NCBI GenBank assembly: GCA_049976305.1
Contig: JBMFIM010000018.1
Coordinates: 1-12,958 of the forward strand
Length of the DNA: 12,958 nt
From: Candidatus Micrarchaeia archaeon
GTDB taxonomy: Archaea; Micrarchaeota; Micrarchaeia; Micrarchaeales; CABMGC01
Direction: 5' to 3'
The notes under the pieces are model-generated. The model was not told the DNA's origin. It made no database searches and worked only from the letters and a program-made list of their open reading frames with translations. Numbering within the stretch: the first letter of the stretch is position 1; each line of letters begins with the position of its first letter. This document shows positions 1 through 7,364 of the stretch, one piece after another. The position numbers and the translations under genes were made by a program.

Positions 1-942
1 ACAGCAACACCTGCGCCTTTCCAGCAAATGATTCAGTTCTCTGAATCAAGCTACTCAAACTACATAACCTACAACGGCAACATAGCCAATTTCGAATTCT
101 TCACGCAGAGCGGCTCAATAATACCTGCATGGATAGAAAGCAACAACAGTGGCACAATAACCGTGTGGCTCAATTTAGCAAACGGCGTGCCAGCGTCAAA
201 CTCAATTACAGTTTATCTTGGCTTTGCCAGCCAAGGCACAAACCTGCTCTCAAGCAGTGGCACAACTGGCATAGGCGAAGCCCCACAGCTAAGCTCAACC
301 TATGCTCAATACGACGATGGGGCGAGCGTGTTCAACAACTACTGGAACTTTGCTGGAACCAGCTTGCCAACAGGCTGGGAAGTGATTGGAAGAGCAACTG
401 TAACTGTTAATAATGGCGTTTCAATTAGTGGAGGGACGGGAGCCACGTATGATAGCCCAGGAATAGAATATACTTCTACAAATTTTGGCACATCTTCTTT
501 TGTAATAGATTCGCTTTCAGAACCTAACACAGGTGGCACGGGGTGTTTTGGGGGCCTAGGAACAAGGCAAACTACATCAACAAGTTTAAGCAATTACCAA
601 ATAGTTGTTGACTCGGGAGACTTATGGGGTGCTTGTGGCAGCGGATACTATAGTATTCAGTATCTAACTAGTTCTTCTTCATCTTCCACAGAAAGCACAA
701 GTTTTACAATAAATCAAAATACGTTTTATATAATAACACTGATACAAAAAAGTTCCACCGCAGAAGGTTTGCTAAATTATGGAAGTCTAGCTACTGCTTC
801 ACCAGTTTCTATATATAACCCAGGAAATAATTATCTAACGTATCTCGCTAACTATGGAGGTGCGTATGTACAATGGCTTCGCACACGTGCCTACCCGCCA
901 AACGGCGTGATGCCAAGCTACAGCTTCGGCAGCGTAAGCTAG
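1..942 (+). CDS. 5'-truncated DUF2341-like, Ser/Thr/Gly/Asn-rich secreted or surface protein (beta-rich, possibly lectin-like)
   Basis: The frame is open from base 1 ([13 protein letters not shown]...) to TAG at 940-942, so the ATG at 28 is probably internal. Motifs [35 protein letters not shown] and [15 protein letters not shown] resemble DUF2341-type surface proteins of acidophilic archaea (recognised from memory). Confidence 0.72.
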
Positions 943-3335
943 GAAATGAGCTTTGCATCGACTACCGAAGCGCCTTGCTCTAGGCGCATGAGCCTTACTC
1001 CGCTTGCATGCCTGCCCGTATGCCTTATCGACTCCACAGGTATTGTTATGCTTATGCCCTTTGAGTTTAGAATTACGAGCTTTGTCTCGTTGCCTACAAA
1101 CATCGCCTTTGCCACATTGCCCGTCTTCTCAGTTACTTTGAAGTTTGCAACTCCACTGCCGCCTCTGCCTTGAAGCCTGTAACTCTGCACGCTTGTCAGC
1201 TTGCCGAATCCTTTCTCTGATATTGTAAGCACGCTGCCTTGGTCGTTTGCTGCGAAGACGTTTAGTGCTGAGTCATCGCCATGCAGTCTTATTCCCCTTA
1301 CTCCTGCGGCGTTCCTGCCCATCTCCCTGAGCCTGCTTTCCTCGAATCTTATTGCCTTTCCTTTCCTTGTCGCTATGAACAGATACGGCATGTTTTGATA
1401 CATGTGCACATCTACTATCGCGTCGCCCTCTCTGAGCAGCAGCGCCCTTACGCCTGTGGACCTAGGCCTTGCAAACAGCCTTGCAGGCGTTTTCTTCACT
1501 ACTCCGCGCTTAGTGAGGAATACCAGCTTGCTGCTCTCGAAGTCCTTTATGTTGAATGCATCTACTACTTGCTCGTCTTTCAGATTGAGAAGATTGACTA
1601 TGGACCTGCCTTCTGCATAGCGCGTGCCTTCTGGCACGTTGTATGCCTTTAGCCAGTAAACCCTGCCTTTGCTTGTCACAAAAAGCAAGTAATCCTTGTT
1701 GTTCGCTATCACTATCCTTTTTACGAAATCCCCTTCCTTTAGATTCATTGTTATTATACCTTTTCCTCCACGCTCCTGCTCCTTGTACTCGCCTATTCCA
1801 AGCCTCTTCACATAGCCCTGGTTTGTAAGCAGAATAGCTACTTGCTCGTTGCTTATCAGGTCCTCGTCCTTTATCTCCTCAGGCTGCTCCATGAACACGA
1901 GCTCAGTCCTTCTGGGCCTCTGGTATTTCTGCTTTATTTCCTGTATTTCCTGCTTTATTATAGCGTCAATCTTCTCAGGAGATGCAAGCACCTGCTTATA
2001 GCTTGCTATCTTTTCATCAAGCTGCTTCTTTTCATTCTCTAGCGTGGTGTGCTCGAGCTTTGTAAGCCTGCCAAGCTTCATGTCTAGTATTGCGTTTGCC
2101 TGCTTTTCGCTTAGGCCGAGTTCTGCCATGAGCTTTGACTTGGCTTCTGCTGTTTCGCCACTAGACCTTACTATTTCAACAACCTTGTCTATGCTTGCTA
2201 TTGCCACAAGCAGCCCTTCGACAATGTGTGCTCTCTCTTGCGCGACCTTAAGCTCATACTCGCTCCTTTTCCTTACAATCTCCCTTCTGTAGTCTATGAA
2301 TGTGTTTACTAGCTGTAGAAGGTTGTAGCTTCTGAGCTCATTTCCTTTTACAGCCAGGTTTATTATCGGAAACGTGATTTCCATTTGGGTGTGCTTGTAA
2401 AGCTGGTTTATGACCTGCTCTGGGCTTGCATCGTTTGCAAGGTATATGCTTATGCTTATGCCCTGCTTGTCGCTTTCGTCGTGAAGGTCGCGTATGCCTG
2501 TTATTACCTTTTGCTTTGCCAATTCAACTATGCTTTTTATCAGCTGGGCCTTGTTTACGCCATACGGTATTTCGGTGACCACAAGCTTGCGGTTTTTTTC
2601 ATCTATGTTTATTCTTGCCCTTACAGTCACCTGGCCCCTGCCAAAACGATAGCCGTTAAGCGCGGAGCCTGACATTATTGCTATGCCCCCGGTAGGGAAG
2701 TCAGGGCCTTTTATTATCCGCAAAAGGTCCTCAACAGTAGCATCTTTGTGGTCTATGGCATATGTCACAGCTTCGCAAACCTCTGCCAAATTGTGAGGGG
2801 GCATGCTTGTTGCTACGCCTACAGCAATGCCTTCTGCACCGTTTATGAGCAGGTTTGGCACCTTAGCAGGAAGCACAACAGGCTCTTGCTCAGTATTGTC
2901 GAAATTAGGCACGAACTGCACAGTTTCTTTATCAAGGTCTTCAAGCATCTCCTCTGCAAGCCTGCTTAGCCTTACCTCTGTGTATCTCATTGCTGCTGGA
3001 GGATCGCCGTCTATCGAGCCCATGTTTCCTTGGCCTTCTATAAGCACATGGTTCATTGAAAAGTCCTGGGCCATTCTTACTATTGCATCATAAACTGCTA
3101 TGTCGCCGTGAGGGTGGTATTTGCCTATGACTTCACCGGTTACCCTTGCACTCTTCTTTGTTGGCTTGTCGTGCGTGTTTCCTATCTTGTACATTGCATA
3201 AAGTATGCGCCTCTGCACAGGCTTTAGGCCGTCGCGCACATCAGGAATGGCCCTGCCTATGATTACGCTCATTGCATAGTCTAGATAGCTCCTTTGTATT
3301 TCGTCTTCAACAGCGACCTTTCTTATCTCTGCCAT
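939..3335 (-). CDS. gyrA: DNA gyrase subunit A
   Basis: 798 aa. [16 protein letters not shown], catalytic AAMRYTE, GyrA-box QERGGKG (1758-1778) and C-terminal beta-pinwheel repeats. No intein. Confidence 0.98.
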
Positions 3336-5386: not shown

Positions 5387-5911
5387 TCAGCTTCTAACGA
5401 GCGATTTTATGGCTTCATCAACGTCTTTCCTCGAAGTAATTAAATAGACTGACACTGCGAACGCCGCTATCCTGCTTGACAAAGAGGTATAAAAGTCTAA
5501 GGCGTAATTGAGAAGGCCTTTTACCACGCCTAGCTTATTTTCGCCGAGCAGGTCTAGTGCTATTCCCTCAGCTATTGCATGCGAAAATGGTGTGCTTGTA
5601 AATCTTGAATCATTGCTGATAAGTATTCTGTGGCCGAGCTCGTGGCCTATTGTCGTCTCAAGATCTTTTAGCTGAAACGAAGCAGGAACAATTACTCCTA
5701 TGCCACCATTTTTCTCTATTGAGGAGTAGCCAAAAACCCTGTTATTGGGCGGGTCTCCAAAATCTAGCTCAAAATTGCTAACATTAAAGTCTCCATATCT
5801 GTGCTTCGCCTTTATGAACTTTTCATAGAATACATTTCCGATTAGTATTCGTGCTGCTTCTTCATCAATGTGCTTCTTTTCTTTATTTTTTAAGACTACT
5901 ACTAGAGCCAT
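5387..5911 (-). CDS. small zincin-like metallopeptidase (HExxH...E), family uncertain
   Basis: 174 aa, ATG to TGA. HELGH (residues 90-94) and AEGIA (E115) give a gluzincin-like third ligand. No clear signal peptide. About 42% GC by hand count. Confidence 0.72.
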   Translation of the reverse strand: MALVVVLKNKEKKHIDEEAARILIGNVFYEKFIKAKHRYGDFNVSNFELDFGDPPNNRVFGYSSIEKNGGIGVIVPASFQLKDLETTIGHELGHRILISNDSRFTSTPFSHAIAEGIALDLLGENKLGVVKGLLNYALDFYTSLSSRIAAFAVSVYLITSRKDVDEAIKSLVRS

Positions 5912-6092: not shown

Positions 6093-7364
6093 ATGGCAGA
6101 AAAACCACACATGAATTTGATCTTCATAGGACACATTGACCATGGCAAATCAACGACAGTTGGCAGGCTGATGTATGAAACAGGAGCGATTTCTGAGCAA
6201 GACCTCAGAAAGCTCAAAGAAGAGGAAGCCAAATACAACCAGGCAACACTTGAATTTGCCTATGTTACAGACGAGCTTAAAGAAGAGAGAGAAAGAGGAA
6301 TGACAATAGACATCGCAGAAAGAGAATTCCAAACACCAAAGTATTACTTCACAGTGATCGATGCGCCAGGCCATAGGGACTTCGTAAAGAACATGATTAC
6401 AGGGGCAAGCCAGGCAGATGCGGCAGTGCTAGTAGTATCTGCAGCAGAAGGCATTCAGCCTCAAACTAGAGAGCACGCATACTTGGCGAAGGTTCTTGGC
6501 ATAAACCAGCTCATAGTAGGAATAAACAAGATGGATGCTGTCAACTATGACCACGTCAAGTTCGAAGATGTCAAAAGCAAGGTAGCAAACTTGCTCAAAA
6601 CCATAGGCTACGACACAAGCAAAATATTGTTTGTTCCATATTCTGCTTTGCAGGGAGACAACGTGTCAAAACCTTCAGACAAGATGCCTTGGTATTCAGG
6701 CCCGACGTTGCTTCAAGCAATAGACACGTTCGAAGTGCCTCCTAAGCCCATAGACAAGCCGCTTAGGCTGCCTATACAAGACGTTTACACCGTATCTGGT
6801 TTCGGCACTGTGCCAGTAGGCAGAGTAGAGACAGGCGTTATGAAGCCTGGCGATATAATTGTAATAATGCCTCCGGGCATAAAGACAGACGTCAAGAGCA
6901 TTGAAATGCACCACAAACCTCTTCAGAGGGCGGAGCCTGGAGACAACATCGGCTTCAACATAAAAGGAGTCGATAAGAAAGACCTTAAGCGTGGAGATGT
7001 TGTAGGCCCTGCTGACAATCCGCCTACTGTTGCCGAAGAATTTACTGCGCAGATTGTAGTAATAAACCACCCAACCGCAATAGCTCCAGGCTACACGCCA
7101 GTATTCCACATACACACCGCACAAGTAGCATGCACAATAGCAGAAATACTTGAGAAGAAAGACCCTAGAACAGGGCAGACAATACAGAAGAACCCAGAGT
7201 TCATAAAGAACGGGGACGTTGCCATCGTGAGGATAAAGCCAACAAGGCCGGTGGTTGTGGAGAAGTACAGCGAATTCCCACAGCTAGGCAGGTTTGCAGT
7301 CAGGGACATGGGTCAGACAGTAGCAGCAGGCATAGTGCTAGATGTGGTGAAGAGACAAGCATAA
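6093..7364 (+). CDS. tuf: translation elongation factor EF-1alpha (aEF1A)
   Basis: 423 aa. [65 protein letters not shown]; archaeal type. Confidence 0.98.

Follow-up and report, generated by a model that had tools for sequence, protein, structure and literature searches.

The analysed stretch of DNA (the window; 12,958 nucleotides) is contig C18 of a 723-kb genome assembled in 34 contigs and 93.7% complete, hereafter G000. At its left end lies the 3' part of a DUF2341 surface-protein gene (Table 1); since the reading frame is cut by the contig start, the gene lacks its 5' part. The convergent neighbour, which we take from its sequence to be gyrA-like, has other neighbour genes in G002 and G003. 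Further along the window, a 174-aa reading frame at 5387-5911 (-) occupies a lower-GC stretch and contains an HExxH-like motif (HELGH) with no clear Pfam match, and a 5'-truncated Thr-rich protein with a C-terminal membrane anchor is encoded at the other contig end (12240-12956, -). A second EF-1alpha fragment, at 75-78% to the window gene at 6093-7364, lies on the 636-bp contig C32 of G000 and probably comes from another organism.

Table 1. Features at the left end of the window.
Feature	Position (nt)	Strand	Basis and remarks
3' part of DUF2341 surface-protein gene	1..942	+	313 aa; frame already open at the start of C18
Host-type DUF2341 base domain, vertically inherited scaffold	1..273	+	99% aa / 90% nt to the G004 homologue
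5' conserved arm (GEAPQ...NFAGT.LP), holds the first head strand; crossover zone	274..369	+	Shared-head and shared-scaffold pairs; joints at 356 and 370
Exchanged head, ~168 aa, AT-rich third positions, predicted ConA/GH16/CBM66-like jelly roll	370..873	+	Codon shift; 21% aa to closest homologue; fold match
3' conserved arm (14-residue motif), last head strand; crossover zone	874..915	+	Pair tracks; strand 287-297
gyrA-like gene	939..3335	-	Convergent neighbour, host-type codon usage; context only, outside the system

The preliminary description of this DNA had proposed, from hand counts of codons and GC, that a foreign middle domain sits between constant flanks, and we reproduced every one of its figures exactly. 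C-ending Asn/Tyr/Phe codons number 22 of 28 in nt 1-378, 5 of 30 in nt 379-870 and 4 of 4 in nt 871-942. The GGC share of Gly codons is 10/12, 5/22 and 2/2 in the same three parts, and GC is 0.487, 0.388 and 0.597 (GC3 0.55, 0.23 and 0.71). When we compared the middle part with 1,544 windows of 164 codons from 503 other ORFs of G000, its synonymous GC3 of 0.227 was below all of them (median 0.475). An unguided change-point search placed the foreign segment at nt 385-876, and an equally strong segment appeared in 0 of 5,000 codon shuffles. Compared with the closest homologue, from G004, divergence begins at about nt 357-370 and ends at 873, which refines the switch points that had been placed near 379 and 870 at conserved motifs. 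Other accessory genes of G000 are likewise AT-shifted (GC3 0.24-0.35), so that low GC3 alone identifies no source and proves no foreign origin. Two adjacent AT-shifted genes of G000 (C14:11749-15204; GC3 0.24-0.36) are likely an acquired island. The Cys pair ascribed to the middle part is present (residues 182 and 212) but incidental, since 119 of 170 family heads contain no Cys and the pair is therefore no family feature.

The gene encodes a Micrarchaeota DUF2341 protein. Its Pfam DUF2341 match (aa 31-89) is weak and below the cut-off (18.2 vs 23.4 bits), the homologues L067 and L179 pass this cut-off, and the profile of PHROG 7548 (rudivirus gp39-like) matches over aa 3-308 with an E-value of 1.3e-22. 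Membership in the DUF2341/PHROG 7548 family follows from this profile match and from both arms around the variable insert, which are the invariant columns of the family alignment. Among the best 78 loci of 556 relatives, the top genome matches are titled Micrarchaeota, and further matches are titled Parvarchaeota, Nanoarchaeota, Marsarchaeota, Bathyarchaeota or bacterial bins. Family matches were found in 33 of 41 related genomes, G000 included.

The window protein is probably pilin-anchored. The closest full-length homologues (L031, L035 and L147; 517-543 aa) carry at their N-terminus a class III (pilin-type) signal motif followed by a pilin-like domain, and the motif KAQSAMEY with a hydrophobic tract occurs in these homologues and at the end of contig C12 of G000. 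The Pfam class III model PF04021 gave no match in L031. The predicted structure of the L031 N-terminal domain (pLDDT 83) consists of a 24-residue helix (residues 3-26) and beta-sandwich strands, and a fold search with it returned the archaeal pilins 8fk7 and 5tfy, weakly (E 7-9e-4) and amid non-pilins. The left end of C12 encodes residues 5-53 of the homologue N-terminus at 96% and runs off the contig; we infer that it is probably the missing 5' end of the window gene. G000 contains pilus machinery, with three matches to the assembly ATPase (PF00437) and one to the A24 prepilin peptidase (PF01478); PF06847 was not found in this genome.

Several other loci bear pilin-type genes or arm sequences. 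In G000 a 587-aa gene (C12:897-2657, -) carries, behind 178 residues that match the pilin part of the G004 homologue at 93% identity, an unrelated passenger, and judging by its sequence would be a case of whole-head swapping on the same pilin anchor. A repeat of ~130 bp, found at the G000 contig ends C1, C4, C7 and C25 and at C13:14970-15104, stands upstream of a pilin-type gene in G004 (L032:846-980), and further pilin-adhesin genes of G000 may be unassembled. The locus differs between relatives: in G003 (L064:1501-1550) a degenerate copy of the 3' arm lies directly behind a stand-alone pilin gene, and in G005 (L037:12-81) the 3' arm (97% to the window) opens a contig and has a different gene behind it.

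The structural model of the window protein has a pLDDT of 76.8 and is weak at residues 96-109 and 203-214. Model residues 110-298 align with ConA-type jelly rolls (Z 19.1, rmsd 2.8, 174 aligned) and with CBM66 (Z 17.8), a Foldseek search matched a jelly-roll structure with an E-value of 1.5e-7, and a Pfam search with the head gave no match. The predicted model shows the two-sheet jelly-roll fold of the ConA-like lectin/glucanase class. Inspection of the head by eye showed no E-x-D-x-x-E motif, which we take to be the GH16-type motif. The top viral structure match to the window protein was the DUF2341 protein of SBRV1 (E 6e-18), and the top Atlas match was a mostly viral cluster (TM 0.81). The first head strand of the model spans residues 111-116 and the last one residues 287-297, and the conserved flanking motifs include both. 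Based on the model, the head is a candidate sugar-binding-type (lectin-fold) domain, for which the fold alone shows no function.

Detailed comparison with homologues revealed that head and scaffold have different histories. The closest homologue, from G004 of the same genus, has in addition to its nearly identical base (Table 1) a 5' arm at 97% aa / 92% nt and a 3' arm at 95% aa / 90% nt, whereas its middle is at 21% aa / 36% nt; DNA beside the gene is 85-92% identical between the two genomes. Divergence along the gene is thus non-uniform, with flanks at 95-99% aa on either side of the divergent middle. The reciprocal arrangement also occurs: L115 and L130 share a scaffold (97% nt) and have heads at 27% aa, whereas L122 and L135 share a head (99% nt) in scaffolds at 42% nt, and heads 90-99% identical in DNA occur within scaffolds that are 42-48% identical. 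Within one gene, L078, two units with a 94% nt scaffold carry different heads.

The same pattern holds across the family, for which we compared 170 units defined by motif, a definition that misses divergent members. Their heads fall into 105 clusters at 50% identity, including 71 singletons, and flank and head identity are uncorrelated (rho 0.02; 94 distinct units giving 3,486 non-independent pairs). In flank and head trees of the 159 of 170 units with enough flank, 33 of the 50 supported splits in the head tree are contradicted by a supported split in the flank tree, and only 4 supported splits are common to both. Head GC3 is lower than flank GC3 in 58/62 Micrarchaeota-genome units (a group that includes loci titled Marsarchaeota), 57/58 metagenome units and 14/20 Parvarchaeota/Nanoarchaeota units; among the virus units it is lower in 7/11, with medians of 0.17 and 0.17 and hence no contrast. 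In the single-contig genome G231, one unit repeats the window pattern (GC3 0.56/0.24/0.50), and the heads of its units range from 0.24 to 0.68 beside flanks of 0.52-0.59, as expected if heads came in at different times. Differences between 8 close head pairs comprise 121 C/T, 120 A/G, 69 A/T and 84 others, 200 of the 394 being at third positions; within a type, heads are under purifying selection. We regard head exchange itself as highly probable; the divergence, the conflicting trees and the reciprocal pairs bear out the earlier claim that a middle domain of ~165 aa is exchanged by recombination between constant flanks.

When we followed 22 chosen pairs at the codon level, shared heads were identical from GEAPQ (nt 274) through the closing MP (nt 915), and pairs with a common scaffold diverged past NFAG and rejoined at W-R-R. 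The arms carry scattered synonymous differences and no fixed site in these tracks, which fits homologous crossover at varying points. Nucleotide identity of the 3' arm is 95% to G004 over 874-929 and 97% to G005 over 871-940, and exact runs common to the window arms and other units reach 59 nt and 29 nt. Identity at synonymous sites is just slightly higher in the arms (0.485 vs 0.437; 750 pairs), so that the arms look conserved mainly for structure. The notion that the flanks act as homology arms is supported as to the crossover, which lies inside the arms; since the arms encode the first and last strands of the predicted head, their conservation is probably structural.

RadA was found in G000. 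We found no reverse transcriptase (PF00078) in this 93.7% complete genome, no tyrosine recombinase (PF00589, the recombinase family searched for), no repeats flanking the head, and no second DUF2341-head unit or template repeat. A diversity-generating retroelement (DGR), which the preliminary description had already discounted, was rejected on the lack of a reverse transcriptase, of a second copy and of adenine-specific changes in the 8 close head pairs, where transitions prevail. Tyrosine-recombinase and repeat-based models of a site-specific cassette system (integron, shufflon or invertase kind) were likewise rejected, with no PF00589 match in G000, no flanking repeats, and arms that vary synonymously.

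With regard to the source of the window head, no relative was found in 247 other genomes of the order, a search of 1.84 billion representatives and two protein searches returned only the window's own protein, and no donor was found in IMG/VR viral contigs and plasmids or among the 169 other family units. The codon score of the head (-0.13) lies between the host median (+0.49) and the rudivirus 5-95% range (-0.59 to -0.30), and thus codon usage does not establish a viral origin. As for the direction of transfer, codon usage points from AT-rich genomes into Micrarchaeota, and in the midpoint-rooted head tree SIRV8/L253 is nested among cells.

In public contigs of the sequencing runs, something other than the window middle lies between both arms, in favour of the earlier idea: four contigs of runs X1 and X5 join position 356 or 370 to 869-874, although these contigs were matched at 80% likeness and may be from other organisms. 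The window head type exists elsewhere, as seen from one X5 contig that carries it at 81% nt (346-858, 95 differences) and from fragments at 83-86% in X1 and X2. Run X5 hardly covers nt 1-252 and leaves gyrA uncovered past nt 1008, and no record in the public contigs of the runs bridges the window head with the window flanks. Word shares were small for X2-X4, and where the head is poorly covered or missing, in X1, X2 and X4, this is no evidence of absence. One X5 contig reaching the 5' arm (with a loose end before window position 295) has a rudivirus-type YTG-x-AP motif upstream in our hand translation, which suggests that viral carriers are present in this run that also holds the window head type.

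The family is shared with viruses. A tblastn search matched it in 46 archaeal virus records, mostly of rudiviruses plus SMV1 and SMV2, and the family alignment as query found 26 loci in viral contigs; the whole window ORF as a single-protein query had no match in IMG/VR viral contigs. The SIRV2 member is gp39/ORF564, which adjoins ORF1070, and one paper reportedly names ORF581 as a virion protein. The rudivirus gp39/ORF564 is listed as a structural protein in Table S4 of PMC5454432, a paper that also flags ORF564 (cluster c3) as phylogenetically incongruent.

Among isolated viruses, SIRV1 (L264) and variant XX are 81% identical in the N-part and 23% in the head, and SIRV8 and SIRV9 (L275) 80% and 22%. 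Five of six rudivirus head types have a cellular match, at 50-75%: the SIRV8/SIRV11 type at 73-75% (partners L089 and L078), the SBRV1 type at 71-72% (L179), the SIRV1-XX type at 62-69%, the SIRV4 type at 53-59% and the SIRV1/2/3/5/9/10 type at 50-59%. The Italian/ARV/SRV type had no cellular match among the loci compared. The scaffolds of the best virus-cell head pairs are only 30-37% identical (SIRV8 vs L089/L078 33-34%, SBRV1 vs L179 30%), and the cellular partners adjoin FEN1-like, TRM5, tRNA-ligase, FtsZ, eIF5A or pilus ATPase genes. Since the highest virus-cell head identity is 76% aa / 73% nt, transfers between those sampled were not very recent. In trees of 39 rows chosen from the 170 units (all 11 virus units and 28 cellular ones; LG+G4, no mixture model), the virus flanks form one clade (100/99, with a bootstrap not fully settled), whereas the virus heads require 8 changes, with monophyly rejected at p-AU 9e-5. 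The six-member clade of SIRV8-type heads is in turn rejected on flank data (p-AU 2e-7). The incongruence of flank and middle trees that had been anticipated is thus seen in the supported splits and in a virus monophyly confined to the flanks. Symbionts and viruses of hot-spring archaea likely draw on one head pool. Of the donors named earlier, other species and viruses do belong to the pool, whereas for paralogs no donor is assembled in G000.

Short family members (~310-400 aa) occur in small-gene clusters without housekeeping matches (L122, L132, L135-L137, L139, L140, L142, L143, L145, L115 and L130), and some of their heads reach 90-94% nt identity to heads in other scaffolds (L073/L115, L106/L137). 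They are possibly an undescribed virus group, but we leave them unassigned; two of their neighbours gave no phage matches, IMG/VR gave no match, and of 60 neighbour ORFs one matched a viral contig and none matched G000.

Based on these observations, we consider it likely that the predicted lectin-fold head at 370-873 was acquired as a block, via the arms of its DUF2341 scaffold, from a pool common to Micrarchaeota, other small archaea and rudiviruses. Incoming DNA with another head, presumably from an AT-rich donor, would pair at the two arms (~95 and 45 nt) with the gene already present, and RadA-type homologous recombination would replace the resident head in frame and as a block. The arms probably form the edge strands by which the head docks on the base and are conserved for that, with recombination homology as a by-product. 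The protein would be displayed on a type IV pilus, its head might bind surface glycans on partner cells, and changing host surfaces could supply the selection.

Here, we need to consider explanations that do without an external donor or without exchange at all. Fast evolution of heads under diversifying selection, combined with A+T drift from weak codon selection or GC-biased conversion, would account for the low GC3 that is general for heads and for the AT-shifted accessory genes of G000 (0.24-0.35), and such drift may explain part of the A+T bias of heads. However, it yields neither a middle at 21% aa between flanks 90% identical in DNA, nor heads 90-99% nt identical in scaffolds that are 42-48% identical, nor heads common to viruses and cells, and the head and flank trees contradict it, which makes it the least credible of the explanations considered. 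That assembly at the conserved arms produced the flank-head pairing of the window as a chimera is very unlikely. In related samples the summed contig depth of the arms is hundreds to 1,100, against 0-4 for the head in three of four runs, exact shared runs reach 59 nt, no bridging record exists, and the contig breaks inside the gene; yet neither join interrupts the frame, the 3' arm has a length of only ~45 nt, the same pattern occurs in isolated viruses and in the single-contig genome G231, and the family-level result would stand even if the window were chimeric. Slightly less probable still is intragenomic gene conversion from silent or paralogous donors in the style of msp2 or pilS, with the donors unassembled. 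Pilin-gene repeats at several G000 contig ends, several units in other genomes, and the L078 units with their common scaffold and different heads would suit it. Against it, only one DUF2341-head unit was found in G000, five single-contig genomes have full-length units in long open frames, G022 and G032 have one match each, and internal donors explain neither the foreign codon usage nor the sharing with viruses. A promoterless donor array was found neither in G000 (34 contigs, repeats at ends) nor evidently in the five single-contig genomes.

What the heads do is a separate matter. We tentatively suggest, at somewhat less than even probability, that they form a shared, recombinase-free pool of receptor-binding heads copied in either direction between the virus particle, where they would be selected for gripping glycosylated pili or the S-layer of a host, and a pilus-tip adhesin of the symbiont, so that host recognition is traded. 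The rudivirus host-range data are partly against a simple one-head-one-host rule. The gp39 of SIRV5, 6 and 7 is identical, and section 3.5 of PMC5454432 describes SIRV5 and SIRV6 as differing on host Y.08.82.36; ARV3, MRV1 and SSRV1, Italian rudiviruses from three host genera, carry one head type (58-84%). Head type as the sole determinant of rudivirus host range is ruled out by this identity and by the three Italian viruses. It could also be that heads are indeed swapped, but for evasion of the symbiont's own viruses, or as structure or variable surface decoration, and not for host gripping. This reading, which we regard as unlikely, fits the fact that head type does not track rudivirus host range, that no ligand is known for the heads, and that fold likeness shows no function. 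It is at odds with the occurrence of the same head types on virions, which have no viruses to evade, with the listing of the virus protein as structural (PMC5454432 Table S4) beside ORF1070, and with the purifying selection within a head type seen at third positions.

The head of ~165 aa with sharp boundaries, small and expressible, is a common candidate for DPANN host recognition and for rudivirus host switching. DPANN host recognition is described as unknown in PMC11329633; LamG-like proteins are reported as expanded in Mia14 (PMC5498576) and lectin-like candidates in Nanobdella (10.1101/2023.10.27.564410). In rudiviruses, the diversity of host recognition has been attributed to genetic drift (Baquero et al., 10.1101/2020.01.16.907410), since no diversifier was known. 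Natural swap pairs are available in SIRV1 vs variant XX and SIRV8 vs SIRV9, beside virus-cell twins at 70-76% identity. A whole binding-type domain traded between viruses and cellular ectosymbionts would be an unusual route of gene flow, and neither an arm-bounded head swap nor head sharing between viruses and symbionts was described in the literature searched, which left most subscription papers and preprint supplements beyond its reach.

Diversity-generating retroelements are defined by a reverse transcriptase, a template repeat and adenine-specific changes. They resemble the present system in a variable lectin-type ligand-binding surface in small archaea and viruses, but here a whole domain is replaced, and none of these three features was found. 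Shuffling of T-even adhesins is said to have been treated by Tetart in 1998. In T-even gp38, variable binding segments are swapped between conserved motifs proposed as recombination hotspots (PMC12032242). That system works alike, with exchange between conserved motifs and no dedicated enzyme implied, and is not homologous; the difference is that the unit traded in the present family is an entire domain of ~165 aa set within a host domain, with a pool that extends over viruses as well as cellular symbionts. The Anaplasma msp2/p44 system, as far as the accounts at hand describe it, likewise has a hypervariable middle between conserved flanks and is driven by recombination, whereas here no silent donor array or single expression site was found and the donors appear external. 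Streptococcus sanguinis PilC is a modular type IV pilin whose lectin module has been shown to bind (PMC9934059), and archaeal DUF2341 proteins of arCOG03508 have been hypothesised to be pilus-tip adhesins (PMC4858521). The full-length homologues share with such modular pilins a class III-type motif, a pilin-like domain and a lectin-fold module; the accessible text on PilC and arCOG03508 describes no head exchange, the binding shown for PilC is a prediction for the window protein, and the pilin fold match, obtained with L031, is weak. Among the closest known systems is also the rudivirus gp39/ORF564 with its homologues (PHROG 7548, annotated as DUF2341 domain-containing), for which the accessible part of PMC5454432 neither localises the swap to the head nor links it to small symbiotic archaea. 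The rudivirus protein has the same DUF2341 base, the two arms and the swappable head, and differs in being a virion protein that is not pilin-anchored.
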